A stretch of 53,298 bases of DNA, taken from positions 1 to 53,298 of the IMG/VR virus record IMGVR_UViG_3300032291_003809. The stretch is one strand, 5' to 3'. A program made the translations under genes and the position numbers. The notes beneath the pieces were generated by a model. The model had not been told where the DNA came from, did no database searches, and saw only the letters and a program-made list of their open reading frames with translations. Shown here one piece after another: positions 3,816 to 20,909 of the stretch (its first letter is position 1; each line of letters starts with the position of its first letter). Origin of the DNA: a virus. Lineage: Duplodnaviria > Caudoviricetes.

Positions 3816-4514
3816 ATGAGTAGTATTCAACGCTATTTACAAATGGCAAACCGTCAAGTGAACGAGCAGTTCATTGGCGTAGATGGTTTCGTAGACGATG
3901 ACATGTATTTTGCAGCAGGAGATAATTTCTTCGGTGCAGATGGTACAGAAGCAGCTCCAATGGCAGCTCCTGCAGTTATGCGTTCTCAACCTTACATCTT
4001 AACAGTTTCTAACGCTTCTAACGCTGCAGTTACTATTGATGTATTCGGAGCTTACATTTACTTGAACAACGCAGGTTTTTCAGGTGGTAGCTTAACAGTG
4101 AGCAATGTTACAATCACTTCAGGATTGTCTAATGTTACTTACTACAACTTATTGAACCAATCTTCTGTATCTCCATTCACAATTGGAAGTACTTTGATTT
4201 CTTCAGTAAACGGTACAACTAGCCAAGTGTTACAACCTTTAACACTTAGCACTTTAGATGCAAACGGTAACCAAGCAACTAAAATCTTAACTCCTGTTAT
4301 TGACCCGTATCAACAACAAAGTGGTGTTATTGAATTGAAACAACCATTCCGTATTGACGGTTTCACTAAGTTGACTTTCAGCATTTATGCTTCAACTTCT
4401 GTTCAATTCCAATTCTACCCTTCTGATACAATCAACATCGCAAGAGGTTTAGGTGGAAACCCTGTATCTAAGCAATATGGTAGTCCAAAGATTATCAGAC
4501 CTGCTTCTCGTTAA
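3816..4514 (+). CDS. Putative major capsid protein (beta-rich, possibly single jelly-roll) with acidic N-terminal leader
   Basis: Downstream of packaging ATPase; own terminator-bounded unit; C-ending codon bias (AAC, TTC, TAC, ATC); alternating beta-strand pattern; paralog at 36712. Confidence 0.6.
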   Translation: MSSIQRYLQMANRQVNEQFIGVDGFVDDDMYFAAGDNFFGADGTEAAPMAAPAVMRSQPYILTVSNASNAAVTIDVFGAYIYLNNAGFSGGSLTVSNVTITSGLSNVTYYNLLNQSSVSPFTIGSTLISSVNGTTSQVLQPLTLSTLDANGNQATKILTPVIDPYQQQSGVIELKQPFRIDGFTKLTFSIYASTSVQFQFYPSDTINIARGLGGNPVSKQYGSPKIIRPASR

Positions 4515-4540
4515 TCCGAGTAGATTAGGAAAAATATAAG

Positions 4541-4583
4541 AAAGGGGCGTGAGTGTGATTATATCTTACTCCGCCCTTTTTTT
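4541..4583 (+). terminator. Rho-independent terminator after capsid candidate
   Basis: GGGCGTGAGT...ACTCCGCCC stem followed by 7 T; A run on 5' side. Confidence 0.85.
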
Positions 4584-4608
4584 AATTAAAATTTAGTAAA
4601 TTTGTTTT

Positions 4609-5022
4609 ATGTCATTACCGAGAGTAAATATATTCAACTATACAGCAGCAGCTAATCCTTACTTTGTTAAGAGTTTAGCTCATAAGTATGGTTATGAATT
4701 TGATAAGGACCAACAATTAGATACTGTGTTGCAACAACTAGTAACTTATGAAGGGGAGCCTGTCATGATGGAAATAATTGAAAATAATCCTGATAAGGAA
4801 TTATTTATGGATTATTTTGAAAAAAAATATGGCAAAAAAGAAGATACCAAAAATGTAAATGAATTAAGTAATAACAAATTATTTGAATCATATATGAATT
4901 TTTCAGGTCAATTACAAACTGCACAATTAACTGCTGAAAATAAAAGTTTAACTACTCAAACAAGCGTTATGGTTCTTTTAGGTGCGGTTTTAATTTCATT
5001 CGCAATAATGTTTAAAAAATAA
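4609..5022 (+). CDS. Putative virion membrane protein, C-terminal TM anchor
   Basis: VMVLLGAVLISFAIMFKK tail; YMNFSG motif. Confidence 0.75.
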   Translation: MSLPRVNIFNYTAAANPYFVKSLAHKYGYEFDKDQQLDTVLQQLVTYEGEPVMMEIIENNPDKELFMDYFEKKYGKKEDTKNVNELSNNKLFESYMNFSGQLQTAQLTAENKSLTTQTSVMVLLGAVLISFAIMFKK

Positions 5023-5026
5023 AAAT

Positions 5027-5704
5027 ATGGCAGCCTTAAACGCATTAGAAACAGCTAGAGAATTAATATCTTATGCAGTAGTAACTAACAAAGATGGTTT
5101 AGTAAAATTATTAGATAGAAATGGCATACAAATGCCAAATAATCCATCTGATAATGAAGTAACTGTTGCAATATTAATGGCAAATTCAAAAAGCGGTGTT
5201 TTTAGAAATGAACTGCAAAAGTATTTATCATCTTTATTACCTGAAGTAGCAGAATATGCTGATTTTTTAGGTAATGGTTATGTAGACTTTACAGGAACTG
5301 ATGATTTTTCTTTCACAGCAGGTGGTGGTAGCTTAATACCTAAGTCGTATGTTCCTACAACTAATGTTCCATCTACAGCACAACCTGTAGGAACAAAAGC
5401 TCCTACAAAAGTAGGAAATGCTTTAAGAAGTGTTGGACAATTTTTGAAAAACAATGTCTTTACTCCTGAAAATATTAATGCAGGTGTTCAAATTGGATTA
5501 ACCTCAATGGCTAATAAAACGCAAACAAAGCAAAATCAAGTAAATGCAGAAGCGTTACAATTGCAAAACTATCAAGATACTTTGAGACAACAGTTACCAA
5601 ATGCAGCTAAAAAATCTAATACTATGTTATATGTATGGATTGGAGTAGGTGTATTAGCTGTTGGTGTGTTAGGATTTGTTTTATACAAGCAATACAAAAA
5701 ATAA
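5027..5704 (+). CDS. Putative virion membrane protein, C-terminal TM anchor
   Basis: MLYVWIGVGVLAVGVLGFVLYKQYKK; YADFLG/YVDFTG/FSFTAG motifs. Confidence 0.8.
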   Translation: MAALNALETARELISYAVVTNKDGLVKLLDRNGIQMPNNPSDNEVTVAILMANSKSGVFRNELQKYLSSLLPEVAEYADFLGNGYVDFTGTDDFSFTAGGGSLIPKSYVPTTNVPSTAQPVGTKAPTKVGNALRSVGQFLKNNVFTPENINAGVQIGLTSMANKTQTKQNQVNAEALQLQNYQDTLRQQLPNAAKKSNTMLYVWIGVGVLAVGVLGFVLYKQYKK

Positions 5705-5895
5705 TGATTAGTAATAAAAAAATATTATTAATCGGAAGTGCTCTAGTATTAGCATATATTCTATTAAAGAATAAAAAAAATACTAAAAAAAATGTAAGTT
5801 CTAAAGAAGAAGTAGTTCCTTTTGACCCAATAAATGTGCAAAAAATGCCATGGGTTGCAGTACCTAATTCTCTATCTCAAATAAATAACAATTAA
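5704..5895 (+). CDS. Small N-terminal TM protein
   Basis: Start reassigned to ATG 5704 (TAATG overlap); KKILLIGSALVLAYILLKNKK. Confidence 0.7.
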   Translation: MISNKKILLIGSALVLAYILLKNKKNTKKNVSSKEEVVPFDPINVQKMPWVAVPNSLSQINNN

Positions 5896-5906
5896 AAACT
5901 AAAATT

Positions 5907-6149
5907 ATGTTAAAAGGTAAAAATTTATGGATTTTATTAGGTGTAGGTGCTGTAGCATACTACTATTGGATGCAAAAGAAAAAGAAAGATACTACTTCTG
6001 CTCCTTCTGTTGCTTTCACAGGGGATTTAGGTGTACCTGAGTATCAAAATGCAGGTGGAAGATATGTAAAAACTCGTATTCCTTATGGTAGCCAATTTAA
6101 TAGAGCCGTTGATAAATTTAGTGGTCAAGAATATTACATACCTCGTTAG
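5907..6149 (+). CDS. Small N-terminal TM protein, paralog of 6184
   Basis: MLKGKNL...LGVGAVAYYYW...AFTGDL...YQNAGG. Confidence 0.8.
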   Translation: MLKGKNLWILLGVGAVAYYYWMQKKKKDTTSAPSVAFTGDLGVPEYQNAGGRYVKTRIPYGSQFNRAVDKFSGQEYYIPR

Positions 6150-6183
6150 TAAGAAAATTATTAAAATTTAAAAAAATACAAAT

Positions 6184-6438
6184 ATGTTAAAAGGTAAAAA
6201 TTTGTACTATGTATTAGGCATAGGTGCTGTAGCATACTACTTTTGGTGGATGAACAAAAAGAAAAAAGATGCTGCTTCTGCTGCTCCTTCTACTGCTAAT
6301 GCTGCATTTACAGGAGATTTAGATGTTACTCAGTATCAAAATGCTAATGGAGATACAACAAGAAAAAGAGTAGATACCATAAGTGGGTCTTCTCCTTTTA
6401 AACATGTTGTTTTAAAAGGTAACAAGCCAAAACAATAA
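6184..6438 (+). CDS. Small N-terminal TM protein, paralog of 5907
   Basis: MLKGKNL...LGIGAVAYYFW...AFTGDL...YQNANG. Confidence 0.8.
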   Translation: MLKGKNLYYVLGIGAVAYYFWWMNKKKKDAASAAPSTANAAFTGDLDVTQYQNANGDTTRKRVDTISGSSPFKHVVLKGNKPKQ

Positions 6439-6443
6439 TTAGT

Positions 6444-6830
6444 ATGACTAATACCAAAAAAATATTATTATACGCAGGGGCGGTTGTTTTAGGGTATCAT
6501 TTATGGAAATACTACAGTAAGCCTAAAAGCGTATTAGTAAAAGGTTCAGATGCTGATACTCCTGAAAAGGTAGAATATAGCACAGGAAAAGAAGGTATGT
6601 TAGGTTCAGATGGTACTTTAGATACAATGATTAATTTAAAGAAGCCTATCTACATTAGACCTCAAAATTCAATCCCTAATGTTTATGACAGAGGAATTGG
6701 ACAATATGTAAATTGTGGTGGTTATATGAACGCAACAGGTTTTGCAGATGATTTACAATATTCTTGTAATGCTAATGTTGTAAAAAACAAACAGACTTCA
6801 GCTTTAACAGATTTGCCTAAATTACCATAA
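6444..6830 (+). CDS. N-terminal TM protein
   Basis: KKILLYAGAVVLGYHLWKYY; YVNCGG/YMNATG motifs. Confidence 0.75.
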   Translation: MTNTKKILLYAGAVVLGYHLWKYYSKPKSVLVKGSDADTPEKVEYSTGKEGMLGSDGTLDTMINLKKPIYIRPQNSIPNVYDRGIGQYVNCGGYMNATGFADDLQYSCNANVVKNKQTSALTDLPKLP

Positions 6831-6831
6831 C

Positions 6832-6972
6832 ATGAATAAAACAGTAAAATATCTTTTGATTTATGCTGCAGTAGCAGGTGGGGCTTATTTATTATATAAG
6901 CAATATCAAGTGATGCAAAATAAATTAGATGGAGATGCCGCTTTAAAAAAGTGGAACGCACAACATAATTAA
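6832..6972 (+). CDS. 46-aa N-terminal TM protein (MNKTVKYLLIYAAVAGGAYLLYKQY...)
   Basis: Not in ORF track; fills gap exactly, same TM style as neighbours. Confidence 0.75.
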   Translation: MNKTVKYLLIYAAVAGGAYLLYKQYQVMQNKLDGDAALKKWNAQHN

Positions 6973-6982
6973 AATAAAAACA

Positions 6983-7219
6983 ATGGCAGAAGCAAAAGAA
7001 ATATTAGATAAGGTAAAACAATTAAAATCTAATTCTGATAGTATGGCATTAAAGAAAATGAAAGGTACTGTTTCAGGAGCCATGATTGGAATGGGTGGTG
7101 GATTATTGATTGGATTTACAAGAGGCTATAGTCTAGTCTCTTCTGCATTTGTAGGAGCTTTGATTGGTGGGGTTATTTCACAGATTCTTTTACCAAAATT
7201 AGATGATAGCAATGAATAA
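6983..7219 (+). CDS. Glycine-zipper two-TM membrane protein
   Basis: GAMIGMGGGLLIG...AFVGALIGGVI. Confidence 0.75.
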   Translation: MAEAKEILDKVKQLKSNSDSMALKKMKGTVSGAMIGMGGGLLIGFTRGYSLVSSAFVGALIGGVISQILLPKLDDSNE

Positions 7220-7883
7220 GAAATATATGAAATTAGCAGCTTTGGCTGCTATTGCTATTGGTGGTTATTTAGTTGTAAGAAACATTTTAGGTAAATCTAA
7301 GGGTTCTAATATTGAGTCCCCAATTCCTGATGCACCTAGCAAACTTAGTGCTCAAGACTTCCCAATTCAAAAAGGTAGTAAAGGGGAAAAGGTAAGAGAA
7401 TTACAATCAATTTTAATTGGAATTAATCCAAGTGCACTTCCTAAATATGGGGTTGATGGAGATTTTGGCTCAGAAACAGAATCTGCTCTTTTTAAATATT
7501 TGAATAAAAAGTCAGTAGACGGCCAAGATGATATGACTACTTTAAGAGGCTTAAAAGATGCAGCTCAAGCTACAGCTTTGCAAAATTCAGTTAATGATAA
7601 TAGAAATGTAGCAGCCAATCAAATTATTTCAAGTTGGAGGGCTAATAGAGGATTAAGTGTTTATGCCAAAGAAGTAGTGCAATATGCAGTTGGAAATTTA
7701 AGCTTTTCGGGGCAAGAAACAAATCTTGCTACTAAAAACGCAGGGACAGGAGCTTTAATTGTTAATGGGTTTGAAGTTAAAGATATGAGTGTATTGCCAA
7801 GTGGGTTTTTAAAAATTATTATTACAGGAGGATTAACGGGCAATTTTATAAAAATTAGTCCTTTTGCTGTAGTATTAAAATAG
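7203..7883 (+). CDS. Membrane-anchored peptidoglycan-binding (PG_binding_1) protein
   Basis: N-terminal TM; FPIQKGSKGEKVRELQ...GVDGDFGSETESAL. Confidence 0.85.
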   Translation: MIAMNKKYMKLAALAAIAIGGYLVVRNILGKSKGSNIESPIPDAPSKLSAQDFPIQKGSKGEKVRELQSILIGINPSALPKYGVDGDFGSETESALFKYLNKKSVDGQDDMTTLRGLKDAAQATALQNSVNDNRNVAANQIISSWRANRGLSVYAKEVVQYAVGNLSFSGQETNLATKNAGTGALIVNGFEVKDMSVLPSGFLKIIITGGLTGNFIKISPFAVVLK

Positions 7884-7911
7884 TAATTTTAAACAAAAAA
7901 TAACCATAAAA

Positions 7912-8202
7912 ATGGAAGAAGTAAATGTTGAAAAAAAGCTTACTGCCAACCAACTTTTTAAACAATATAAAGATGAAGGCGGCACATTAGCTTTTTCAGA
8001 TTGGCTAAGTAGAGAGAAAACTAAAGGAGTTTTCCCAATTAATAGTAACTTAAACAAAGAAATAGGCGAAAAATTGTTTATATTAAAAAAAGAAGAAATG
8101 GATAAAAAAGTATTAGGATTTCCCGTTAGTACACTTCTTATTGCAGGTGGTGTAATAGTAGTGGCAATAGTTGCTGTTAATCTGTTAAAAAAGAAAGCGT
8201 AA
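7912..8202 (+). CDS. Small C-terminal TM protein
   Basis: LLIAGGVIVVAIVAVNLLKKKA; AACCATAAAA directly before ATG. Confidence 0.75.
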   Translation: MEEVNVEKKLTANQLFKQYKDEGGTLAFSDWLSREKTKGVFPINSNLNKEIGEKLFILKKEEMDKKVLGFPVSTLLIAGGVIVVAIVAVNLLKKKA

Positions 8203-8489
8203 TGAAAAAAGATAATTTTATTTGGTGGGTACTAGGTGGTGTTGGGGCTGTTGCTATTTGGTATTATTATAAAAATAATAATAATAAAAAAAGTGTAACT
8301 ACTCAAGACTTAGTTGTAGATGTTCTTCAAGAAGAGCAAGACAAATATAGTACGCCTTTCCAAGCTGAATACAAGATTGTAATGCCATCAGATATGGTAA
8401 GTGCTAAAGTGAGAGCAAAAGCGGAAGCGTTAAGAGCAGGAAGATTTGCAATCCAACCTGAAAAGGTACAAGCACCGTTATACATCTAG
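8202..8489 (+). CDS. Small N-terminal TM protein
   Basis: FIWWVLGGVGAVAIWYYYK. Confidence 0.75.
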   Translation: MKKDNFIWWVLGGVGAVAIWYYYKNNNNKKSVTTQDLVVDVLQEEQDKYSTPFQAEYKIVMPSDMVSAKVRAKAEALRAGRFAIQPEKVQAPLYI

Positions 8490-8490
8490 T

Positions 8491-9297
8491 ATGCAGTATA
8501 AATTATGGACAAGGTATGAACCTGTAATGGTTAAGATTGTAGTGAAGACAAATTCGCCACAGCCAATTGTGTTAAAGGCATTTGACCCAACACAGGCCAA
8601 TACGGTTTTTATGGAAAGAGAAAAAACTGTTGATGGAGTACAAGAGTTGTATGTGAGGATGCCATTATCCCCAAATTCAACTGCTCTAGCAATTTATAAT
8701 AAAAAAAATGGCAACCTACCGAAAGGTCAGGACAGTTCTTTTGAAGTAGTGGAAATCAAAAAAGAAGACTTGGACATTACTTTGTCTAAAACAAAAATGG
8801 ACAATTCTTTAGTTAGAAACTTTGTTGCTTTTGCTCAAAAGTTTGCATACAATGCAGGTTGGGTTCAAGCTCCAAAAGATTATATAAGTTCCGTAGGTGC
8901 TTTTAAAATAGAATACCTACCTTATATAAGAAGTAACAAAACAGGAGAGAAAATGGCTACCCCTGCTCGTATAAGTACCAAAAATGGTCGTATACAAGTA
9001 TCTCAGGAATCATTTCTTCCTTTTACTATCCCTATGAGAATGGCAATTTTATTACATGAGTTTAGCCATTTTTATTTGAATAGTGATATTTCTAATGAGA
9101 CTGAAGCGGATTTAAACGGACTTACAATTTATTTAGGATTAGGCTACCCTATCAAAGAGGCCTATTCTGCTTTCATTGATACCTTTATAGGTTATCCAAC
9201 GGAGCAAAATAAAAGAAGATATGATATTATCAATAGGTTCATAAAGGACTATATTGAAGAATATAAAATTAAAGATGTCTACGCAGTAGGCGAATAA
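8491..9297 (+). CDS. Zincin-type (HExxH) metallopeptidase, candidate virion maturation protease
   Basis: AILLHEFSHF followed by ETEAD (third Zn ligand pattern); start reassigned to ATG 8491; embedded in structural operon. Confidence 0.75.
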   Translation: MQYKLWTRYEPVMVKIVVKTNSPQPIVLKAFDPTQANTVFMEREKTVDGVQELYVRMPLSPNSTALAIYNKKNGNLPKGQDSSFEVVEIKKEDLDITLSKTKMDNSLVRNFVAFAQKFAYNAGWVQAPKDYISSVGAFKIEYLPYIRSNKTGEKMATPARISTKNGRIQVSQESFLPFTIPMRMAILLHEFSHFYLNSDISNETEADLNGLTIYLGLGYPIKEAYSAFIDTFIGYPTEQNKRRYDIINRFIKDYIEEYKIKDVYAVGE

Positions 9298-9307
9298 AAT
9301 ATATGTT

Positions 9308-9835
9308 ATGGCAGAAAAAGGATTAATGAAAGTATATACAGAATTACCATCTTGGGCTAAGGGCGTAGTAGTCATAGGTGGATTAACTGTAACCTATTTA
9401 GCAGTAACAGCGGTACTTAGAAAATTTAAAGAGACTAAAGTTAAAAACGAGTCTTTAGCTGAAGTAAACAATGCTAGTAGTGAGTTGAATACCCAAATTC
9501 AAACAGGAAAAGGTCCAACCATCGCTAGAAGCCAAGCTGAAGCTATGTCAAATGCAATTGTTGCGGCTGCGAATGATTGTGGTACTGAAGAGAGACAAAT
9601 TTATGCTCAATTTGATAAGGTTAATAATCAAGCAGATATATTATTATTTGTAGATGTGTTTGGATTAAGAAAAAAAGTAAGGTGTCCTTTCTCTGATGAC
9701 CCTAGAGAATCATTTTTTTCAGCAAATACACCTCCAATGTCATTATCTGCTATGATTAATAGTGAGTTAGATGCAACTCAAATTGCAACAATAAATAATA
9801 AATTAGCAAGTAAAGGAATAACTTATAAATTTTAG
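9308..9835 (+). CDS. N-terminal TM protein with helical domain
   Basis: WAKGVVVIGGLTVTYLAVTAVL; GTEERQIYAQF is weakly annexin-like. Confidence 0.7.
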   Translation: MAEKGLMKVYTELPSWAKGVVVIGGLTVTYLAVTAVLRKFKETKVKNESLAEVNNASSELNTQIQTGKGPTIARSQAEAMSNAIVAAANDCGTEERQIYAQFDKVNNQADILLFVDVFGLRKKVRCPFSDDPRESFFSANTPPMSLSAMINSELDATQIATINNKLASKGITYKF

Positions 9836-9838
9836 TAT

Positions 9839-10459
9839 ATGGCAATATTTGAAAGTGAAAAGAAAAGAAAAGAAGAAGCAGCAAATTTGTATTCTCAAAA
9901 ATACCCTTTGAGTGATTCTATATCTTCTTTGCAAAATAGTTTGAATTTGGCTAATGTAGAGTTAGTTGGATTAAAGAATGATAAACCTGAAACTTCAGGA
10001 GCTATTCGTGTTAGACAAAGAAACATTACTGCTCTATCTAATAGAATAATGCAGTTACAAAATAAAATTAAAGATTTAAAAAGCGGAATGAGTGGTAATG
10101 ATATTTTAAGAATAGCAGCACCATCATTAACTAGACTTACTGATATTACTACTAATAAGATATTAAACGCTACCCCTTACAGCTTTCAAATACCTACTTA
10201 TAATTATCCAACTTCAAGTACTAACTTATTAGCTACTCCAAAATATGCTCCTGCAAAAACAACTGATGCTAGAGATTTGGCGGATTCAGTAGAAAATGGG
10301 CAAGGTCTTCCTGTAGATGGAGAACCTACGGGTGCTCAAGGAGATTATCCTCCTCCTTATGGAGTACAAGGCTCAAACACTAAGTCAATTTTGTTGTATG
10401 GTGGTTTAGCAGCGGTATTAGGTTTTACAGCTTATTATATGTTTATAAAGAAAAAATAA
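9839..10459 (+). CDS. KYP-family coiled-hairpin protein 1, C-terminal TM
   Basis: KYPLSD...GAIRVRQRNITAL; ILLYGGLAAVLGFTAYYMF. Confidence 0.75.
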   Translation: MAIFESEKKRKEEAANLYSQKYPLSDSISSLQNSLNLANVELVGLKNDKPETSGAIRVRQRNITALSNRIMQLQNKIKDLKSGMSGNDILRIAAPSLTRLTDITTNKILNATPYSFQIPTYNYPTSSTNLLATPKYAPAKTTDARDLADSVENGQGLPVDGEPTGAQGDYPPPYGVQGSNTKSILLYGGLAAVLGFTAYYMFIKKK

Positions 10460-10463
10460 AGAA

Positions 10464-10937
10464 ATGGCACTACCAAAATTAGGACCTACGGGTAAAAAAA
10501 TAGCAACAGGAGCAGCAGTTGCAGGGGTATTAACACTTGCAGGGATTGGCATATCAAAAAACGCAGAACGAAAAAGAGTTTTGTCTACTGAAGGAGATAT
10601 GGATAAAAAATATCCTTTCTCTGAAAATTGCTTAGAAATGCAAAATATCCTTAAATCTGCAAAATTGGCTTTGAGTCAAATGGAATCTGAATCAGGTGGA
10701 GATGCGGGTGCAAAAAGAGTGAGAGCAAGACAAATTGCTGCTTTAAAAGGAAGAATAGTTGAAATTGAGAAATATTCTTTAAGCTTAGATTGCTCAAATT
10801 TACTATTATCTAATGAAGGATTGGTCCAAGAATCTCCTGCTTCTACAACATCAAACACGACAAAGTACTTGTTATATGGAGTAGCGGGTGTAATTTTGTT
10901 AGTGGTATTTTCTAATTTAATGCGTAAAAAAGACTAG
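10464..10937 (+). CDS. KYP-family coiled-hairpin protein 2, C-terminal TM
   Basis: KYPFSENC...GAKRVRARQIAAL...LDC; KYLLYGVAGVILLVVF. Confidence 0.75.
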   Translation: MALPKLGPTGKKIATGAAVAGVLTLAGIGISKNAERKRVLSTEGDMDKKYPFSENCLEMQNILKSAKLALSQMESESGGDAGAKRVRARQIAALKGRIVEIEKYSLSLDCSNLLLSNEGLVQESPASTTSNTTKYLLYGVAGVILLVVFSNLMRKKD

Positions 10938-10939
10938 TT

Positions 10940-11737
10940 ATGGCAGTAAAAATATTTGGTACGACAATCATAGGAGGCGAAGCTCAAAGAAAAGAGGCCG
11001 CTTCTAATACTATGTCAGGGAAATACCCATTGACAAATGATTGTAATTTAATGAAGAGCACTATTGAAGCTGCAAAAGCTGAATTAGCTCAAATAAATGC
11101 TAGTAGACCTTCTACTGCGGGTGGTAAGCGTATAAAGGCAAGAAATTCAGATGCTTTGAAAGTTTGGATTAATGAAATGCAAAACTTTTTAAAGGATTTA
11201 ACATGCGGTATAGTATATACTCCTGAAGGAATTAAAGTAACTCCTGTTGCAGCTCCTTCTGCAGATGCTACTGTAACGCCTAGTCCTACAGCACCGACTC
11301 CTGTTCCACAACAGCCTACCATTTTTACCCCTGAAGTTGTTAAAAACTATGAACAACCAAGTATTAAATGTGCGGATGGTACTTATGATGTAGCTAATGG
11401 AGTTAATCCTCCATGTGCAAACAAAGGTGGGGTATATTTACCAAGTTTGCCATTACCTGCTCCTGCACCTGTATTACCAAGTGGTCAGTCAACAATAATA
11501 AGTGCTCCTGCACCTGTGAGTCAACCGTTGCCATCTGCATCTATACCTCCTACAGTAGATTATGCAAAACTATATGATACTGCAGCTTTAGGTACAGCAA
11601 TAGCACAATCTAATGGTTCTGCTCCTTCCCCTATTAGTGCACCTGCTGCTCAAGATGATACGCAAAAATATTTAATGTATGGCGGTATTGCTTTAATTGG
11701 TGTTTTAGTATTAAATTCATTAACAAATAGAGATTAA
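10940..11737 (+). CDS. KYP-family coiled-hairpin protein 3, Pro-rich stalk, C-terminal TM
   Basis: KYPLTNDC...GGKRIKARNSDAL...LTC; KYLMYGGIALIGVLVL. Confidence 0.75.
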   Translation: MAVKIFGTTIIGGEAQRKEAASNTMSGKYPLTNDCNLMKSTIEAAKAELAQINASRPSTAGGKRIKARNSDALKVWINEMQNFLKDLTCGIVYTPEGIKVTPVAAPSADATVTPSPTAPTPVPQQPTIFTPEVVKNYEQPSIKCADGTYDVANGVNPPCANKGGVYLPSLPLPAPAPVLPSGQSTIISAPAPVSQPLPSASIPPTVDYAKLYDTAALGTAIAQSNGSAPSPISAPAAQDDTQKYLMYGGIALIGVLVLNSLTNRD

Positions 11738-11748
11738 AAATATTAACT

Positions 11749-12432
11749 ATGGCTATAGATATGATTGAAAATAACGATTTAGGTGCTTTAGCCAAAGGAA
11801 GGCTTGGGGACTTAAATGGTTTTACAGATGAGAATAAAATCTATAAAAACTTTGCAGGAAATGAAGAAGTTTTTCAAAAAATAGATATTAACGAAGAATT
11901 TGAAAATCTTTTTGGTATCAATATTTTTGGAGATGAAACTTTTAAAAGAAACAAAGAAAAGGCAAAAACTGATGCAGAAACTTTTGTAAAAAAACTACCT
12001 AAGACTACTTGTGATGATTTAAAAAGTAGCTTAGATAAGTTAGCATTATATATTGAAGCTCAAACTAAAGAATTAGGATTAGCTAAAGGTCATGTAACAG
12101 AATATCCAAAAATTAGGTTGGGAATAGCTAGAACTGCAGAGGCTGAAATGAAAATGAAACAAGAAGAGAAGCAATGTATAGCTATAGCTCAAAAAATTGA
12201 AACTGAGCAAAAGAAAGCAGAACTTATAAAAACTTTAACTAATGTATCTGAAGCTAGTGTACAACAAGCTAAAACAGACTTATTTGGAGTTCCTAGTGGG
12301 CAACCTTTATATGCTCCTGCTTCACAAGGTGGCGGATTAACAGCGAGTTTGGGCTCTAATAAAAATTTATTAATTTACGGTGGAATTGGACTTGGTGCAG
12401 TTTTACTATTAGCAATGTTAAGAAACAGATAA
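11749..12432 (+). CDS. Divergent KYP-family protein with acidic leader, C-terminal TM
   Basis: KLPKTTC...KQC; leader with YKNFAG/FENLFG; LLIYGGIGLGAVLLLAML. Confidence 0.7.
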   Translation: MAIDMIENNDLGALAKGRLGDLNGFTDENKIYKNFAGNEEVFQKIDINEEFENLFGINIFGDETFKRNKEKAKTDAETFVKKLPKTTCDDLKSSLDKLALYIEAQTKELGLAKGHVTEYPKIRLGIARTAEAEMKMKQEEKQCIAIAQKIETEQKKAELIKTLTNVSEASVQQAKTDLFGVPSGQPLYAPASQGGGLTASLGSNKNLLIYGGIGLGAVLLLAMLRNR

Positions 12433-12923
12433 TGAAATACTTAAAACCCATATTAGTAGTTAGTGGATTATCTATAATAGGTTATGCTTTATATAATTAT
12501 TATAAAAAGCAGATAGACTTTTTAAAAGATATTAGCTATAAAATTACAGGTATAAGATTAGTTACTATCTCTCAAGGAGATGTAACAATAGAAGTTATCA
12601 TGGATGTTTATAATGCTTCTAATGTAGAGGCTACTGTTACTGAGATATTCTTAGATTTTACAATGAATGGTGTTAAAGTAGGAAGTATAAATGAATCACA
12701 AGAATTTGTAATATTACCTACAAAAACTAGTCAAGTAAGATATAATTTTACTTTCAATCCTAGTTTAGTATTTAAAAATATTGTTAATATAGCAACTTTG
12801 ACATTATCGTTAAAAGATGTTAAATTTGTAGCAGATGGATACATAAAAGTAAAAAGTTCATTCCTTTCAACGACTGTCCCTTTTACCTATGAAAATACTT
12901 TGAAAAATCTTTTAAAAAAATAA
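12432..12923 (+). CDS. LEA_2 (WHy)-domain membrane protein
   Basis: N-terminal TM; VYNASNVEATVTEIFLDFTMNGVKVGSI. Confidence 0.75.
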   Translation: MKYLKPILVVSGLSIIGYALYNYYKKQIDFLKDISYKITGIRLVTISQGDVTIEVIMDVYNASNVEATVTEIFLDFTMNGVKVGSINESQEFVILPTKTSQVRYNFTFNPSLVFKNIVNIATLTLSLKDVKFVADGYIKVKSSFLSTTVPFTYENTLKNLLKK

Positions 12924-12926
12924 CAA

Positions 12927-13202
12927 ATGGGAGCTACTAATATATGGTCTAAAACAATTACAGATACCTCTTTAACAATATCTGCTAGTCAAAATGTTGT
13001 TAGAATATCAGTTTTAGCAAGTCAAGGCCCTGTTACCATATTGGGTACATCAGTATTTAATGGAACTGCATCAGATGCTGTAACTTTTGCTACAGGTCAA
13101 GGTGTAACTTTAACTGCTTCATCTACAGCTAATCCTATAGATGGAGTTACAATTGCGTGTACAGGAGGAGGAGTCGCAGATATTGTATTATCTTATCAAT
13201 AA
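12927..13202 (+). CDS. Small all-beta structural protein
   Basis: 91 aa, Thr/Ser/Val/Gly-rich beta pattern. Confidence 0.65.
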   Translation: MGATNIWSKTITDTSLTISASQNVVRISVLASQGPVTILGTSVFNGTASDAVTFATGQGVTLTASSTANPIDGVTIACTGGGVADIVLSYQ

Positions 13203-13210
13203 AAAATAAA

Positions 13211-13654
13211 ATGGAAAATAGAGATATTGTATTATTATTAGGTTTAGGTGTTGTAGGTTACTATATATACAACAAGGCAAAAAGTGGTTCTGACTTAAAT
13301 GTAAAAACATTTGTAGAAGAAAATTTGTCTAGTGTTCCAACTAGTATTCCAACTAATGTTCCTGTGGCACCTCAAGAACCAACTGCACCTATCCCTATGC
13401 CAACTGCTGCACCTGCGACAACAACTAAATATACTTATCCTGAAGGGATTGGGAAAGATGGTAAGAAATTTGAATTAAATGATGGCGATTATGTAGCAAA
13501 TGGGGAAGAAACTGCTATTTTATATCAAGGTAAATTAAGACCTATGACTGCTGCTTATGCTAACAAATTTGCAGCGGGTACTTGGGAAAGAACAAAAATT
13601 TTAGATAATATAGTTTATAGCAGCATACCGAGAGGTGCTGTTTTAGATGCGTAA
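13211..13654 (+). CDS. N-terminal TM protein with Pro/Thr stalk
   Basis: Start reassigned to ATG 13211; IVLLLGLGVVGYYIY. Confidence 0.75.
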   Translation: MENRDIVLLLGLGVVGYYIYNKAKSGSDLNVKTFVEENLSSVPTSIPTNVPVAPQEPTAPIPMPTAAPATTTKYTYPEGIGKDGKKFELNDGDYVANGEETAILYQGKLRPMTAAYANKFAAGTWERTKILDNIVYSSIPRGAVLDA

Positions 13655-14088: not shown

Positions 14089-17000
14089 ATGAGTAGTACA
14101 TTTTTAGGAGGAGATACTTTTAGTTTTATTAGTGGCGGCTCAGGTGGTGGCTCAGGAACTTCAGGTTCTGCGGGTACATCGGGCTTTTCAGGTACTTCGG
14201 GTACTTCAGGTACTCTTGGTACTAGCGGTATTAGCTATGGCTCTAGTGGAACTAGTGGTGCTAGTGGCTCTTCAGGTACATCAGGCTCAACAGGTTTAAC
14301 AGGTACTGCAGGTACTTCAGGTGCTGCAGGTTCAAGTGGAACTTCGGGAAATTCAACTGCAGGTACAGCAGGTACTTCAGGTTTTTCAGGCGTATCAGGT
14401 TCTAGCGGTTCTAGTGGTACTTCAGGTGCTCAGGGCTCTAGTGGTACATCAGGCTCTTCAGGTAATGCGGGTTCAAGTGGTACATCAGGTGCTGCAGGTG
14501 CTACGGGTAGCTCAGGTACATCAGGTAATGAAGGTACATCGGGTACATCGGGCTCTTCAGGTTCTACAGGAACTTCGGGTTCTACAGGAACTTCGGGTTC
14601 TTCAGGTTCAAGTGGTACTACAGGAACGGATGGTTCTTCAGGTTCATCAGGCTCAAGTGGTACTTCTGCAACAAGTGGTGCAAATGGTACTATGGGTACA
14701 AGTGGTGTTAATGGTACTAGTGGTATTAATGGTACAGCAGGTACTTCAGGAGCTCAAGGTTCTGCAGGTACTTCAGGTATTAGTGGTGCAGCTATCTCCA
14801 ATTGGTATGGTAGCTTTAGTGATAGTACAAATCAAACAGTTGATGGAGCTAATACTCCTACAATATGGACATACAATACAACTGAAATTTCAAATGGGAT
14901 TAGTATAGTTACAGGTTTAGATGGAGCTTCTAAAATAACTGTTGCTAATGCAGGTAAATATCAAATTGGATATTCTGCTCAAATAGATAAATCAAGCGGT
15001 GGTAATGACCAAGTTTCTATTTGGGCTAGAATTAATGGTGTAGATGAGCCAAGAACTAATTCTATTATTGAATTGATTGGTGCTGCGGCTGAATCATTAC
15101 CGTTTGTATCTTATATTTTTGATTTAGCTGCAGGAGATTATGTAGAATTTGTTTTTGCATCTGCTGATGCAACAGTTAGATTATTAGCTTCTCCTGCTAC
15201 AGTAACCCCTGCAGACCCTTATGATTCTCCTGCTGCTCCTTCAGTAATCATAGTAGCTTCAGAAATTGGCGTTGCTGTTGCGGGTACATCAGGAACAAAT
15301 GGTACTTCAGGAACATCAGGTTCAAGTGGTAGTTCTGCGACTTCAGGTGCAACAGGTACTTCAGGCACTAGTGGTTCTGCGGGTACTTCAGCTTCTTCAG
15401 GTTCATCAGGAACAGATGGTTCAAATGGTTCTTCAGGAACTGCGGGTACAGCAGGAACTTCAGGTTCTAGTGGTACAGCAGGTTTGTCAGGAGATAGATA
15501 TAGAACTACTTCAAGTTCTGAATTTACTTTAGCAGGTTCAGGTCAAATTACAATTACAGTAGGTACAGGTCTTTCTTATACAGTTGGACAAGCTGTAACT
15601 ATTGCTTACGATATTAGCAACATCCAATTTGGAGATGTTGTATCTTATAACTCAAACACAGGTGTATTTGTATTTAATGCAACTACATTCACAGGTTCAG
15701 GTACATATAACTTTTGGACTGTAAACTTATCAGGTTCTGCGGGTGGAGATGGCTCTTCAGGAACATCAGGCTCATCAGGTACTTCTGCAAGTTCAGGTTC
15801 AAGTGGAACTTCAGCAACTGCAGGAACTTCAGGTTCAAGCGGTTCTTCTGCAACTTCAGGTACTTCTGCAACAGCAGGTACTTCAGGCATTGATGGTACT
15901 TCAGGTACAGATGGTTCTAGTGGTACTTCAGGTCAAGATGCTACTGCAGGTACAAGTGGTACTAATGGTACTACAGGTACTTCAGGTTCAAGCGGAACTT
16001 CGGCTAGTTCAGGTTCTTCAGGTACAACAGGTACTTCAGGAGAAACAGGGACTAGTGGTACTTCAGGAGAGACAGGTACAAGTGGTACAGATGGTAGTTC
16101 AGGAACTAGTGGTACAACAGGTACAACGGGTACTTCAGGTTCTTCAGGAACTACAGGTACAAGTGGTACGGATGGTAGTTCAGGTACAACAGGAACGAGT
16201 GGTACATCTGCTTCTTCAGGAACTTCAGGTTCATCAGGAACTAGCGGTACTTCGGGTTCATCAGGTACAAATGGTTCTAGTGGTACTAGTGGCTCTTCAG
16301 GTACAACGGGTACAGCAGGTACTGCGGGTATTTCAGGAGATAGATATAGAACTTCATCTACTACTTCAGTAGCTTTAGGTGTTGGAGGTAGTATTACAGT
16401 TGGTACAGGATTAGCATATTCTATTGCACAGACTTTCATCATGGCTTATGATGATTTCAACTATCAAATTTGTAATGTATTAACTTATACTTCAGGTTCA
16501 GGATTCTTAACTTATACAGCTCCTATAGATGTAGTTGGTTCAGGAACTTATGACTTATGGCAAGTAAACCTTGCGGGTGCATCAGGAGGAGACGGTACTT
16601 CAGGTACAAATGGCTCTTCAGGTTCATCAGGTACAAATGGTTCATCAGGTACAACAGGTACTTCGGGTTCTAGTGGTACAGATGGTTCTTCTGCGAGTTC
16701 AGGTTCAAGTGGTACTACGGGAACTTCAGGTCAAGATGCGACTGCGGGTACAAGTGGCTCTACGGGTACATCGGGAACTTCAGGTCAAGATGCTACAGCA
16801 GGAACTTCAGGTCAAGATGCGACTGCGGGAACTTCAGGTTCTAGTGGTACTTCAGGTTCTAGTGGTACTTCAGGTACTAATGGTACTGCGGGTACTAGCG
16901 GTTCTAGTGGTTCAAGCGGTACTTCAGGGACTTCAGGTACTAATGGTAGCTCAGGGACTGATGGCTCTAGTGGAACTGACGGTTCTTCAGGTACTGATGG

Positions 17001-18381
17001 TTCTAGTGGAACTTCAGGTCAAGATGCAACTGCGGGTACAAGTGGCTCTAGCGGTACATCAGGAACTGCGGGTACAAATGGTACAGCAGGTACTTCAGGT
17101 TCTTCAGGTACAAATGGTACAAATGGCTCAAATGGAACTTCAGGTTCTAGTGGAACTGATGGTTCTAGCGGAACGGATGGTTCTTCAGGAACAAGTGGAG
17201 AAAATGGTTCTTCAGGAACTAGTGGTACTACAGGTACAACAGGAACTAGTGGTACTAATGGTACTGCGGGTACAACAGGAACTAGTGGTACTACAGGTAC
17301 ATCAGGAACAGATGGTTCTTCAGGAACGAGTGGTACAACAGGTACTGATGGCTCTAGTGGTACAAGTGGTCGTGATGCTACTTCAGGTACAAATGGTTCA
17401 TCAGGAACTAGCGGTACAACAGGTACATCAGGTTCAGCAGGTACTGCGGGTGTGTCAGGAGATAGATATAAGTCAGCTTCAATTAGTTCATATACAATTG
17501 GTGGAGTAGGTTCTTCAGGAACAATAACAATAGGTACAGGATTGCAATGGACAACAGCACAATCTGTTTTAATTGCTTACGATGCTTCAAATTATGTTCT
17601 TGCTGAAGTAAATTCATACTCTTCAGGTACAGGTGTAATGACTTTTACAGTAGTTGACCCTATTGGTTCAGGTACTTATGATTCATGGCAAGTAAACTTG
17701 GCGGGTGCATCAGGAGGAGATGGTACTTCAGGTACATCGGGTTCTTCAGGTACATCAGCGAGTGCGGGTACTTCAGGTAGAGATGCAACTTCAGGTTCAT
17801 CAGGTACTAGCGGTACATCAGGAACTTCAGGTTCTAGCGGTACTTCAGGCACTAGTGGTACAAGTGGTAGCTCAGGTACAAGTGGTACATCAGGTACTGA
17901 TGGCTCTAGCGGTACTAGTGGTACATCTGCTTCAAGTGGAACTAGTGGAACAAGTGGCTCTTCAGGTACTGCAGGTACAACAGGTACTTCGGCAACTTCA
18001 GGTGCAACTTCATTGTTTGCAGGTACTTCAGGTACAACTGAAACATTACCTTTAGTTGAAGCTACTACTACGACTAGTACAACAACTACAACTACAACTG
18101 TATCTTCTACTACAAGTACTACAACGACTACAACAACTGTATTATTTGCAGGAAGTATTGATTATAGTAGTAGTGCTATAAATATTTGTACTACACCTGA
18201 TGGTTCTTTTTTAGTAACAGGTGATGCTACTACATTCTGTACTTGTACTACATTATCAGGTGCAGGTTTTGCAGGTCTTGCAGCAGGAACTTGGTATATT
18301 AAGTCAGGAACAGATTATGTATCAGTAACAACAAATGGTAGTAGCGTAGCAACTATCACAAGTGGTTGTACTGCATGTTAA
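14089..18381 (+). CDS. Giant Gly-Ser/Thr triplet (collagen-like) fibre protein with C1q/BclA-CTD-like domain, three repeated beta domains, Thr tract and Cys-rich tip
   Basis: (G-T-S/G-S-S)n tracts; C1q-like ITVANAGKYQIGYSAQI...WARING at ~14790-15280; GDRY...W.VNL.G domains at ~15490, ~16336, ~17458. Confidence 0.85.
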   Translation: MSSTFLGGDTFSFISGGSGGGSGTSGSAGTSGFSGTSGTSGTLGTSGISYGSSGTSGASGSSGTSGSTGLTGTAGTSGAAGSSGTSGNSTAGTAGTSGFSGVSGSSGSSGTSGAQGSSGTSGSSGNAGSSGTSGAAGATGSSGTSGNEGTSGTSGSSGSTGTSGSTGTSGSSGSSGTTGTDGSSGSSGSSGTSATSGANGTMGTSGVNGTSGINGTAGTSGAQGSAGTSGISGAAISNWYGSFSDSTNQTVDGANTPTIWTYNTTEISNGISIVTGLDGASKITVANAGKYQIGYSAQIDKSSGGNDQVSIWARINGVDEPRTNSIIELIGAAAESLPFVSYIFDLAAGDYVEFVFASADATVRLLASPATVTPADPYDSPAAPSVIIVASEIGVAVAGTSGTNGTSGTSGSSGSSATSGATGTSGTSGSAGTSASSGSSGTDGSNGSSGTAGTAGTSGSSGTAGLSGDRYRTTSSSEFTLAGSGQITITVGTGLSYTVGQAVTIAYDISNIQFGDVVSYNSNTGVFVFNATTFTGSGTYNFWTVNLSGSAGGDGSSGTSGSSGTSASSGSSGTSATAGTSGSSGSSATSGTSATAGTSGIDGTSGTDGSSGTSGQDATAGTSGTNGTTGTSGSSGTSASSGSSGTTGTSGETGTSGTSGETGTSGTDGSSGTSGTTGTTGTSGSSGTTGTSGTDGSSGTTGTSGTSASSGTSGSSGTSGTSGSSGTNGSSGTSGSSGTTGTAGTAGISGDRYRTSSTTSVALGVGGSITVGTGLAYSIAQTFIMAYDDFNYQICNVLTYTSGSGFLTYTAPIDVVGSGTYDLWQVNLAGASGGDGTSGTNGSSGSSGTNGSSGTTGTSGSSGTDGSSASSGSSGTTGTSGQDATAGTSGSTGTSGTSGQDATAGTSGQDATAGTSGSSGTSGSSGTSGTNGTAGTSGSSGSSGTSGTSGTNGSSGTDGSSGTDGSSGTDGSSGTSGQDATAGTSGSSGTSGTAGTNGTAGTSGSSGTNGTNGSNGTSGSSGTDGSSGTDGSSGTSGENGSSGTSGTTGTTGTSGTNGTAGTTGTSGTTGTSGTDGSSGTSGTTGTDGSSGTSGRDATSGTNGSSGTSGTTGTSGSAGTAGVSGDRYKSASISSYTIGGVGSSGTITIGTGLQWTTAQSVLIAYDASNYVLAEVNSYSSGTGVMTFTVVDPIGSGTYDSWQVNLAGASGGDGTSGTSGSSGTSASAGTSGRDATSGSSGTSGTSGTSGSSGTSGTSGTSGSSGTSGTSGTDGSSGTSGTSASSGTSGTSGSSGTAGTTGTSATSGATSLFAGTSGTTETLPLVEATTTTSTTTTTTTVSSTTSTTTTTTTVLFAGSIDYSSSAINICTTPDGSFLVTGDATTFCTCTTLSGAGFAGLAAGTWYIKSGTDYVSVTTNGSSVATITSGCTAC

Positions 18382-18433
18382 AAAAGTTGTAAATTTGGTT
18401 ACTAAAAACTAACCATAAAATAATGAAAGAATT

Positions 18434-19678
18434 ATGCCGTATTCAAATATAACCTTTAATGTAAGCCAATTCTTGTCATTACAAGTTCACTCCTTTGTGA
18501 AAGTTAGTCATGATGCTAATAACTATATTTTAGGACAAGTTGTTACTTATAACCCCTCCACAGGGGTTTTAGTAATTACGCCTACTTCATCTGTGGGTAG
18601 TGGAACTTTTAATTCATGGACAGTTAGCTTAATTGGATATAGTGGCTCATCAGGAGCTAGTTCAAGCTCAGGGAATAGTACACAAGCAGGTACTAATGGT
18701 ACTGCGGGTACTGATGGCTCAAGTGCCTCTTCAGGTTCAACAGGTACTTCAGGTACTTCTGCAACAGCAGGTACTTCTGCTAGTTCAGGTTCCTCTGCAA
18801 CAGCAGGTACTTCAGCAACAGCAGGTACTGCGGGTTCAAGTGGTACTAGTGGTTCTAGTGGTACTTCTGCGACTTCAGGAGCTTCAGGCTCAAATGCAAC
18901 TTCAGGTACTGCAGGTACTTATGGTAGTTCTGCTCTTTCAGGAGCTAGTAATTCATCAGGTTCTTCAGGTACTTCAGGTTCATCAGGTGTAACAGGTCCA
19001 ACAGGTCCACAAGGTGCTACAGGTCTAACAGGCCCAACAGGAGGTTCAGGTTCATCAGGTACTTCAGGCTCAAGTGGTGCACAAGGTCCAAGAGGTCCAC
19101 AAGGTCCAACAGGTCCAACAGGACCTACAGGTATTCAACCCGCTTCAGCACCTACAGGAGCAACAGGTCCACAAGGTCCAACAGGTAGTTCTGCCAATTG
19201 GGGACAAGATTTGAATAGTGGTGGTTCAGGTGCAGTTTATGGTCCTCTAACAGGAAGCCAATATTTATTTACTTATGGTAGATATTATACAGCAGGAGAC
19301 CAAGGTAAGGGAATCACTAGTAATGTAGCTCCTGTTTGGCAAGGTTTTGGATTTGGATGGGCTAGTGATGCTGCTTTAGGAGGTACTTACTTTTATGGTA
19401 CATCTTTAAGAGAGACAAAAAAAGAAATTCAACCATTCACTAAATCAGCTATGGATATTATCAATAGAACTGAAATAGTGAGCTATAAGATGGATTCAGG
19501 GGTTCATGATGATACCACTTTAATTGGATTCGTTGCAGAAAATACTCCTGTAGAATTATCAACTGAAAAGCAAGATTCAATGGATAACACTAATACATTA
19601 GGTGTAATTTTAAAAGCAATACAAGAAATTGACGATAGAATAATAGCTTTACAAAATAAAAAAAATGCCATACGCTAA
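18434..19678 (+). CDS. Collagen-like fibre protein 1 with C-terminal S74-type intramolecular chaperone
   Basis: N-terminal beta domain, GTS then GPT/GPQ triplets, [10 protein letters not shown]...GFVAE...KAIQEI. Confidence 0.85.
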
Positions 19679-20894: not shown

Positions 20895-20909
20895 AATAAC
20901 AATATTACT

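Follow-up and report, generated by a model that had tools for sequence, protein, structure and literature searches.

The window analysed here, that is, the whole stretch of 53,298 bp, is a linear IMG/VR virus record (IMGVR_UViG_3300032291_003809) with a CheckV completeness of 47% and a G+C content of about 31%. Its genes are short, tightly packed and phage-like, and few functions could be recognized among them: a RecT-like annealing protein, an exonuclease, a DUF1064/resolvase-like nuclease, glycosyltransferases, several 2-oxoglutarate (2OG)-Fe(II) oxygenases, and collagen-repeat fibre proteins that have a Peptidase_S74 chaperone domain at the C-terminus. This report concerns the region from position 3816 to 12432, in which a six-residue motif recurs in the products of several open reading frames (ORFs) and in which a protein of 268 amino acids (aa) with an HExxH zincin motif, called the zincin below, is also encoded. 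The genes are arranged in the order P-loop ATPase, a 232-aa beta-rich protein that is the putative major capsid protein, and a long run of small proteins, many of them with one hydrophobic helix. A Kyte-Doolittle segment of at least 1.6 was found in 10 of the 20 genes at 3816-13654, compared with 9 of 55 elsewhere in the window. The features are listed in Table 1, and ORFs are referred to by their first position.

Table 1. Genes and motif strings of the window, in order of position (nucleotides of the window unless stated otherwise).
Feature	Position	Strand	Description
P-loop ATPase, 273 aa	2591-3412	+	directly upstream of the capsid gene; putative genome-packaging ATPase; no motif
Putative major capsid protein, 232 aa	3816-4514	+	beta-rich core 57-204; N-terminal leader 1-56 (nt 3816-3983) with two motif copies
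FIGVDG	3870-3887	+	capsid leader (ORF 3816)
FFGADG	3927-3944	+	capsid leader (ORF 3816)
Tail-anchored protein, 137 aa	4609-5022	+	conserved N-terminal domain, variable linker, YMNFSG, about 16 residues, C-terminal transmembrane helix (residue 117)
YMNFSG	4891-4908	+	ORF 4609
Tail-anchored protein, 225 aa	5027-5704	+	YADFLG and YVDFTG; transmembrane helix at residue 201
YADFLG	5255-5272	+	ORF 5027; not conserved in orthologues
YVDFTG	5279-5296	+	ORF 5027; FTG-x-DD-[FY] core conserved
Two tandem paralogous small proteins	5907-6149, 6184-6438	+	N-terminal hydrophobic segment, Lys-rich stretch, [AN]FTGDL unit, then YQNAGG or YQNANG
YQNAGG	6042-6059	+	ORF 5907
YQNANG	6334-6351	+	ORF 6184
Small protein, 128 aa	6444-6830	+	N-terminal hydrophobic segment; YMNATG near C-terminus
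YVNCGG	6705-6722	+	ORF 6444; not conserved in orthologues
YMNATG	6723-6740	+	ORF 6444, near C-terminus
Zincin-motif protein, 268 aa	8491-9297	+	N-terminal beta-sandwich 1-95 and small HExxH catalytic-type domain; candidate processing protease
Tail-anchored coiled-coil protein, 227 aa	11749-12432	+	conserved N-terminal peptide, then YKNFAG and FENLFG; transmembrane helix at residue 206
YKNFAG	11842-11859	+	ORF 11749
FENLFG	11899-11916	+	ORF 11749
Collagen-repeat fibre proteins	18434-19678, 19665-20894, 21294-22517		C-terminal Peptidase_S74 chaperone domains
EASADG	residue 41 of ORF 36377 (nt 36497)		outside the strict expression
Capsid-core paralogue, 224 aa	36712-37386	+	without leader and without motif; same BLAST cluster as ORF 3816

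A sequence-only reading of the window had listed twelve motif strings and had summarized them as [FY]-x-[NGDS]-[AF]-x-G. All twelve strings were found in the ORFs to which they had been assigned, and translation confirmed the nucleotide coordinates. The expression itself (the strict motif) fitted 8 of the 12, but FIGVDG, YVNCGG, FENLFG and EASADG fell outside it. The strict motif was commoner in this module than elsewhere: 8 strict matches were found in 2,888 aa at 3816-12432 and 1 in the other 14,119 aa, and proteins with a strict match made up 7 of 18 inside the region compared with 1 of 57 elsewhere in the window. When the genes of the region were shuffled within each protein, the mean number of matches was 0.49, and none of 5,000 shuffles reached the observed 8. 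The sole strict match outside the region (YGNAWG at residue 1151 of a 1,364-aa protein, 37388-41482) is probably due to chance.

Relatives of the window were fetched through the putative capsid protein (14 loci) and through the zincin (69 loci). The distant set comprised 55 loci with a zincin 31-54% identical, none of which had been used to define the expression. In these loci 330 strict matches were found against 54.4 expected, an enrichment of about six-fold, and 54 of the 55 exceeded their own expectation, the exception being L080 (1 match against 0.91 expected). The consensus of the lineage was [FY]-x-N-A-[DSG]-G, and it was cleaner in the distant relatives than in the window, in whose clade F or V is frequent at position 4, and whose capsid leader has G at position 3 in both copies. 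The leave-one-out analysis showed enrichment of F (8.5-fold) and Y (5.9-fold) at position 1, of N at position 3 (7.1-fold; 149 of 310) with G second (2.0-fold; 46 of 310), of A at position 4 (7.3-fold), of D at position 5 (6.0-fold) and of G at position 6 (8.5-fold); Glu was frequent two residues upstream of the motif (35%, 6.2-fold). The sites lay in disordered leaders, linkers and terminal tails, and among 265 distinct contexts 133 began within the first 40 residues and 15 lay within the last 25. The density of the motif was highest 2-4 kb upstream of the zincin gene (3.71 per 1,000 aa) and was 2.0 in the adjoining 2 kb, while the shuffle level was about 0.17 per 1,000 aa. Looser forms persisted in L080, among them Y-H-N-V-D-G, H-S-N-A-D-G and, in its capsid leader, W-S-N-D-G-G; this relative may have undergone drift of the motif, which could offer a handle on co-variation with the zincin.

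The ORFs of the 55 distant loci and of the window were clustered by BLASTP, and the 53 clusters with at least 8 members were considered. The motif was present in at least 25% of the members in 14 clusters and in none at all in 32, and about 9 of the 14 carrier clusters showed the clean [FY]xNAxG form. Strict matches were found in 51 of 72 members of the capsid family, 42 of 54 of the 4609 family, 24 of 95 of the 5027 family and 17 of 51 of the 7912 family, and carrier families absent from the window had them in 21/44, 10/37, 8/16, 9/13, 9/9 and 4/10 members. The zincin (0/56), ATPase (0/53) and 1145 (0/50) families stood at zero. The carriers were mostly small tail-anchored or signal-anchored proteins, and at least nine families without any BLAST link to one another shared the motif as conserved islands in variable linkers and termini. 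The sequence-only reading had described the carriers as otherwise unrelated; this was true of several families, but ORFs 5907 and 6184 are tandem paralogues.

The conservation of individual sites was examined in distinct orthologues. In the 4609 family, YMNF[ST]G was kept in all 10 close orthologues, and among 48 distinct members the motif columns scored 7, 5, 8, 7, 4 and 9 on a scale of 0-9, compared with 0-4 for the preceding linker and 1-3 for the columns just after. Ten distinct orthologues of the 5027 protein aligned with [MVF][NDG]FTG[TIL]DD[FY] kept, FTG-x-DD-[FY] being present in 10/10. In the 6444 family the pattern [YFD][MA]NA[TSAD][GA] was found in 9/9 distinct orthologues of 29-79% identity, and in the 11749 family [YF]x[NGC]F[ASTV][GA]x[EDQ][ED]xF was found in 11/11 of 31-81% identity. 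The number of units varied in the 5907 family: the [AN]FTGDL unit of the 5907 protein lies at 6015-6032, and the L002 orthologue has NFTGDL twice followed by YQNGSG.

The possibility that the motif is due to chance, to composition or to an expression fitted to a few strings afterwards was weighed against these data. The expression had been written after the strings were seen and misses 4 of the 12, and two of the 14 carrier clusters look coincidental (YAGAVG in 10 of 13 members and FISFGG in 5 of 11, both inside folded or hydrophobic segments). However, the shuffles, the six-fold enrichment in out-of-sample loci, the specificity at every fixed position when each was left out in turn and the conservation islands in the alignments refuted this explanation, and its probability is negligible. 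The motif is real and lineage-wide, and its standing as a selected short linear motif of unrelated virion-module proteins is well supported by the comparisons; its function as a cleavage site is putative. The sequence-only reading was supported in part: the motif common to unrelated proteins of the virion module proved to be a selected one, and the HExxH gene of the same module proved to be conserved and single-copy. Pfam and PHROGs gave nothing for the capsid protein, the 4609, 5027 and 11749 proteins or the 36712 paralogue, and whatever the mechanism behind it, the motif can serve as an annotation marker for virion-module proteins in a lineage without database annotation.

The putative capsid protein was modelled with AlphaFold2 (mean predicted local distance difference test, pLDDT, 61). 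In the model the beta core comprised residues 57-204, and pLDDT fell below 50 at 13-56 and at 205-232. The leader was predicted to be disordered, and its second motif copy ends about 14 residues ahead of the core. In the Foldseek search of the PDB the top matches were jelly-roll-type sandwiches (cowpea mosaic virus S, satellite tobacco mosaic virus, nucleoplasmin, tumour necrosis factor and concanavalin A), all with E values of at least 0.02, and an Atlas search with the protein returned nothing informative. Both leader motifs were kept in close relatives, with F[IV]G[VA]DG for the first copy, and in distant relatives the leader reads F-x-N-A-D-G ... F-F-N-A-x-G. The product of ORF 36712 matched the capsid protein in BLASTP with an E value of 3e-4 over residues 115-203. 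This paralogue and 34427-36709 form a second, smaller virion-like block, in which small transmembrane proteins precede the leaderless capsid paralogue and no strict motif occurs; within it, 35157-35657 matched the 'short tail fiber' PHROG 12032 (E 1.3e-28). In a 102-kb relative, a 397-aa ORF (L014:9824-11017) is a tandem duplication of the capsid core without a motif-bearing leader, and residues 57-206 of the window capsid protein matched it at residues 60-205 (E 5e-22) and 239-394 (E 1e-24). The same 102-kb genome also has an ordinary single-domain capsid gene with a leader (L059:4057-4752), and the 397-aa ORF may be a fusion from single to double beta-sandwich capsid gene caught in a living lineage.

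The ATPase is a core family found in 53 loci. Its matches were all weak (phrog_2666, E 7.2e-5; the Zot-like phrog_197, 0.0082; AAA_22, 0.083), and it had no match among PDB sequences. Five relatives were 84-102 kb long, four of them at least 90% complete. Unlike tailed HK97 phages, none of the five matched PF05065 (Phage_capsid, HK97) or PF03237 (Terminase_6N), which is a weak negative for divergent genes. A literature search, with supplementary files outside its scope, returned no account of the lineage, of the motif or of a phage metalloprotease maturation system.

The arrangement was compared with membrane-containing tailless phages of the PRD1, PM2, FLiP and sphaerolipovirus types, whose genomes are of 10-20 kb. 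As in those phages, a small ATPase gene lies by a small beta-sandwich capsid gene and is followed by many genes for small transmembrane proteins, and a second capsid-protein paralogue is also a feature of membrane-containing tailless phages. In contrast, the genomes of the present lineage are of about 84-102 kb, neither the capsid protein nor the ATPase has a sequence match or a confident fold match to those of PRD1-type phages, and collagen-like fibres with S74 chaperone domains are present here. The comparison also covered the jelly-roll major capsid protein and the FtsK/HerA-type packaging ATPase of Varidnaviria-like phages, for which the matches were the weak ones given above. The lineage probably consists of uncultured, membrane-protein-rich, tailless phages of about 85-100 kb, and the genes at 3816-12432 are probably a virion-assembly module of a membrane-containing phage, the labels 'capsid' and 'structural' being ones that we infer.

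Relatives of the phage were also found as five contigs (L085-L089) in metagenome-assembled genomes labelled Gammaproteobacteria, Bacteroidota, Chlamydiales, Sediminibacterium (a 132-kb contig) and Alphaproteobacteria. These labels probably do not identify the host, and mis-binned viral contigs are the simplest account of them; freshwater Bacteroidota, to which two of the five labels point, would be a guess.

The sequence-only reading had reported the strings HEFSH and ETEAD in ORF 8491-9297, and both are present (at 9055-9069 and 9097-9111); the orthologues place the start codon at the ATG at 8491. The AlphaFold2 model of the zincin (mean pLDDT 86) showed a sandwich at residues 1-95 and a mixed helical domain, with the HExxH on a helix at 180-196. 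In 45 sequences of 29-47% identity P58, H189, E190, H193, E203, D207 and R243 were invariant, so that the helix-borne HExxH that defines clan MA (H189, E190 and H193) was found throughout, and E203 and D207, both downstream, are candidates for the third zinc ligand. The spacing of 10 residues between H193 and E203 and the fusion to an N-terminal sandwich were constant across these diverse members. The protein had no signal peptide and no transmembrane segment. Its family is numerous in metagenomes. At 90% identity it forms 1,199 clusters, one of which was named 'Zn-dependent protease with chaperone function' by one source; at 50% identity it has 550 representatives, and among the 150 that were listed nearly every one is 240-310 aa long. 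The zincin gene was single copy in 5/5 relatives, its position between the capsid and membrane-protein genes was kept in 55/55 anchored distant loci, and its product was the only recognisable protease among the core families.

The affinities of the zincin were sought with profiles and structures. Below the curated cut-off, Pfam gave PF18894 in 6 of the 45 members (best E 0.0044), SprT-like in 2, M78 in 1 and M48 in 1, and NCBIfam gave SprT in 5, zincins in every case; a profile search of PDB sequences found nothing below an E value of 0.33. In Foldseek the zincin matched 3c37_A, a putative Zn peptidase (E 2.6e-3, probability 0.69), and the N-terminal domain resembled carbohydrate-binding modules (CBM) and immunoglobulin (Ig)-like domains. 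The nearest named Atlas clusters were M48/M78/U49-like (score 0.92), which is a lead only. In BFVD the fold matched baculovirus enhancin/VEF with E values of 3.5e-4 to 1e-3, a template modelling (TM) score of 0.2-0.28 (0.25 at E 3.5e-4) and a root-mean-square deviation of about 20 Å over the whole protein. The small gluzincins of clan MA (M48-like minigluzincins, M78 ImmA/IrrE, U49 Lit, PF18894 PhageMetallopep and SprT-like proteins) likewise have an HExxH helix, a downstream acidic ligand candidate and a domain of about 150 residues; the zincin differs from them in belonging to none of these families at the curated cut-off, in the N-terminal sandwich fusion and in the fixed spacing.

We tentatively favour, at a little less than an even chance, the reading that the motif forms cleavage or recognition sites of the co-encoded zincin. 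The six residues of the motif would be recognized by the 268-aa protein as P3 to P3', and the scissile bond would lie within the motif, plausibly the one that joins position 3 (N or G) to the hydrophobic position 4 (A, F or V). This placement would match the usual preference of HExxH proteases for a hydrophobic residue at S1'. During maturation of the particle the capsid leader of about 40 residues would be trimmed off, short N- or C-terminal peptides would be taken off membrane proteins, and soluble domains would be freed from their membrane anchors. The comparisons show that the motif is real, specific, conserved and localized and that the catalytic residues of the zincin are conserved; the activity of the zincin, its action on the motif and the bond to be cut are predictions. 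Unrelated virion proteins that carry one short consensus in disordered leaders and tails present a pattern as in known maturation systems, and contexts near the termini are sites usual for propeptide cuts. The intact, conserved core gene of the zincin beside motif-rich genes was also counted for cleavage, as were its standing as the one recognisable protease of the core families and the two motif copies in the predicted disordered leader of the capsid protein.

Known maturation systems were compared with this one. The sequence-only reading had pointed to adenovirus, poxviruses and African swine fever virus (ASFV); this comparison holds as an analogy only, and closer analogues are the prohead proteases of phages T4, phiKZ and SPN3US. 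The adenovirus protease, which is Ulp1-like and has (M/I/L)xGx-G sites, is of the cysteine type, as are the enzymes of ASFV and poxviruses, which also act at Gly motifs. As here, many virion proteins of those viruses have a short Gly motif with a hydrophobic residue a few positions upstream, and the viruses are non-HK97 and some contain a membrane; however, their enzymes are cysteine proteases of eukaryotic viruses, whereas the candidate here is a zincin of a prokaryotic virus, with another motif. The 8491 product is not of the cysteine type, and no search was aimed at Ulp1-like genes in the relatives.

For T4 and phiKZ the consensus motifs of prohead cleavage are known, and the enzymes of T4, phiKZ and SPN3US are serine proteases (assemblin/S77-S80 type) of tailed phages with HK97-fold capsids. 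Each system has one protease gene in its head module (T4 gp21, phiKZ gp175 and SPN3US gp245), as the present module has one protease-type gene, and in each, as here, a short consensus occurs in many unrelated head proteins, mostly near N-termini and sometimes repeated within a propeptide. For gp245, the head protease of SPN3US, the accessible text of PMC10052503 gives 14 cleavage sites distributed over 9 proteins, with the cut following AXE. The present candidate differs in being an HExxH zincin, an analogue at most and not a member, and its cleavage is putative; its motif has six residues with four specific positions, and most of the carriers are small membrane proteins. For PRD1-type phages no maturation protease or shared motif is described in the accessible text of PMC6260650 or in the main text of PMC5894146. 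In the former, to the extent of that text, the polinton model has the maturation protease acquired in eukaryotes and describes a PRD1-like ancestor without one, and in the latter, a census of prokaryotic double-jelly-roll viruses, the word 'protease' is absent from the main text.

Several observations weigh against cleavage by the zincin. No Pfam or NCBIfam model was over its cut-off among the 45 members, and the zincin belongs to no curated protease family. A tblastn search with the capsid protein, the zincin and the ATPase against 50,697 GenBank phage records gave no match, and there is no cultured relative. Of the 265 motif contexts 118 are internal, away from the termini. The most divergent relative, L080 (a 69-kb IMG/VR contig with a zincin 31% identical), kept the zincin while its strict motif was at the chance level. 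In the capsid and 11749 families conservation extends to the peptides that precede the motif; this fits a propeptide and, equally, an arm that stays in place as part of the structure. A common four-residue hairpin turn is similar to the N-A-[DSG]-G core, and this would favour a structural or docking role. The CBM/Ig-like sandwich and the weak enhancin matches of the modelled zincin would be in keeping, too, with an enzyme that attacks material on the host surface.

These same contexts bear on a docking or assembly motif, an uncut turn or hairpin flanked by an aromatic residue that would bind one common partner and so tether the membrane proteins and the capsid N-arms. The partner could be a scaffold, the capsid lattice at its inner face or the 8491 protein through its beta-sandwich, and the zincin would have another, or only a partly related, job. 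The enrichment, conservation and localisation data suit docking as they suit cleavage, and the conserved flanking N-terminal peptides and the copies in variable number (the capsid leader has two, and the 5907 protein has as many as three units in its L002 orthologue) would suit it as well, the latter through avidity. In carriers with a single predicted transmembrane helix the motif was N-terminal to the helix in 119 of 161 contexts, and the segment N-terminal to a tail anchor is expected to stay cytoplasmic and to face the capsid. Where the motif was C-terminal to an N-terminal helix, the positive-inside rule placed it on the cytoplasmic side in 22 contexts and on the other side in 9, with 11 ties, which is weak support for docking. 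On the other side of the balance, docking motifs shared across many virion proteins are, to our knowledge, far less documented than shared cleavage motifs, and docking leaves a catalytically intact zincin unexplained as a core gene of the module. Its partner is hypothetical: hhalign of the zincin family, N-terminal domain included, against the capsid family gave a probability of 0.2% and so no relation. Docking of this kind, the main rival of cleavage, is judged to be somewhat unlikely. A complex prediction of the zincin with capsid-leader residues 1-60, run without controls, gave a best score of 0.17 against a mark of 0.32 and weighs neither for binding nor against it.

The fold matches of the zincin also raise an explanation that overlaps with docking, in which the zincin has nothing to do with the motif and is a virion-borne or early enzyme that acts on envelope or surface protein of the host at entry or exit, as an enhancin/M60-like enzyme, or on a host regulator, as an M78/U49-like one. 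Another factor, or none, would then act on the motif. The sandwich-plus-zincin architecture, with enhancin/VEF at the top of the BFVD matches and CBM and Ig-like domains among the PDB matches of the N-terminal domain, is in keeping with the former, as is the neighbouring gene 7203-7883 with its weak peptidoglycan-binding match, and the M48/M78/U49-like Atlas clusters are a lead towards a separate role. However, the BFVD matches are weak in structural terms, and the protein lacks both a signal peptide and a membrane segment. Its gene lies in the middle of the capsid and membrane-protein block, the motif density peaks beside it, and the zincin is as conserved across the lineage as the capsid protein. 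We consider a zincin unrelated to the motif to be clearly unlikely.

The preference for Asn at position 3 suggested chemistry at this residue without the protease: self-cleavage at an Asn-Ala or Asn-Phe bond, glycosylation of a sequon, or hydroxylation by a 2OG-Fe(II) oxygenase. Maturation of nodavirus and tetravirus capsids proceeds by Asn-driven self-cleavage at Asn-Ala or Asn-Phe bonds, and the motif has the same pairs, with N dominant at position 3 and A or F next to it; the glycosyltransferases and several 2OG-Fe(II) oxygenases of the window would provide for the other two reactions. In contrast, G also occurs at position 3, and the window has it there in both copies of the capsid leader, which excludes Asn chemistry, with its obligatory Asn at the scissile bond, as a general mechanism; as an explanation it is very improbable. 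The two enzymatic variants were rejected on their own data as well. For an N-glycosylation sequon, position 5 was S or T in only 69 of 268 contexts and was most commonly D (72/268). For modification by an oxygenase, PF13759 was found in 2 of the 5 relatives, and two motif-bearing genomes of 100% completeness lacked it. A calcium-binding loop of the EF-hand type, whose consensus is DxDxDG with Asp at loop position 1 as a metal ligand, was rejected too, as the corresponding position was F or Y in 149 of 245 contexts and Asp was not among the residues seen there at least 3 times.

Should the zincin indeed cleave the motif, a widespread group of large, membrane-protein-rich, uncultured and probably tailless phages would mature their particles by cutting [FY]-x-N-A-x-G between N and A in the capsid leader and in a dozen membrane and minor proteins, a proposal that we regard as somewhat less likely than not. 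If true, a maturation protease system would be new to prokaryotic non-HK97 viruses, and one based on a metalloprotease would be new altogether; its likeness to the serine-protease systems of T4 and phiKZ and to the cysteine-protease systems of adenovirus, ASFV and poxviruses would be a matter of convergence. A cleavage code would mean that a tailless non-HK97 phage lineage undergoes proteolytic maturation through a third catalytic class. In the model in the accessible text of PMC6260650, the maturation protease enters this virus world only in eukaryotes. Cleavage by the zincin can be tested without a cultured host, with two or three recombinant proteins and synthetic peptides.

Other genes of the module were also inspected. 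The product of 7203-7883 is a membrane-anchored protein of 226 aa with a weak match to PG_binding_1 (E 0.03) and matches to endolysin PHROGs (E 3.7e-5); the motif was found in 0/42 members of its family. It could be a virion-associated or lysis protein that binds peptidoglycan. The consecutive genes 9839-10459, 10464-10937 and 10940-11737 encode tail-anchored proteins that by eye look like tandem paralogues, with a common N-terminal module made up of KYP[LF][ST], a Cys or Ser, a helix and a G-x-[KR]-[RV]-[IRV]-x-A-R stretch.

Downstream of the module, 14089-22517 encodes a 1,430-aa protein of Gly-Thr/Ser triplet repeats, followed by the three collagen-repeat fibre proteins of Table 1, each of about 410 aa. 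The composition of the repeats also gives rise to many spurious ORFs in the other frames. The collagen-like fibre genes have as neighbours a large block (22540-33437, 41551-45448 and 52136-52774) of genes for glycosyltransferases and for 2OG-Fe(II) oxygenase paralogues; of the latter, at least two are confirmed and there are apparently more. This proximity suggests that the fibres are hydroxylated and glycosylated. The 1,364-aa protein of 37388-41482 gave no Pfam match; modules of about 100-150 aa occur in it as several near-identical pairs, together with Thr-rich linkers that are repeated, and it is likely to be a host-recognition or fibre protein.

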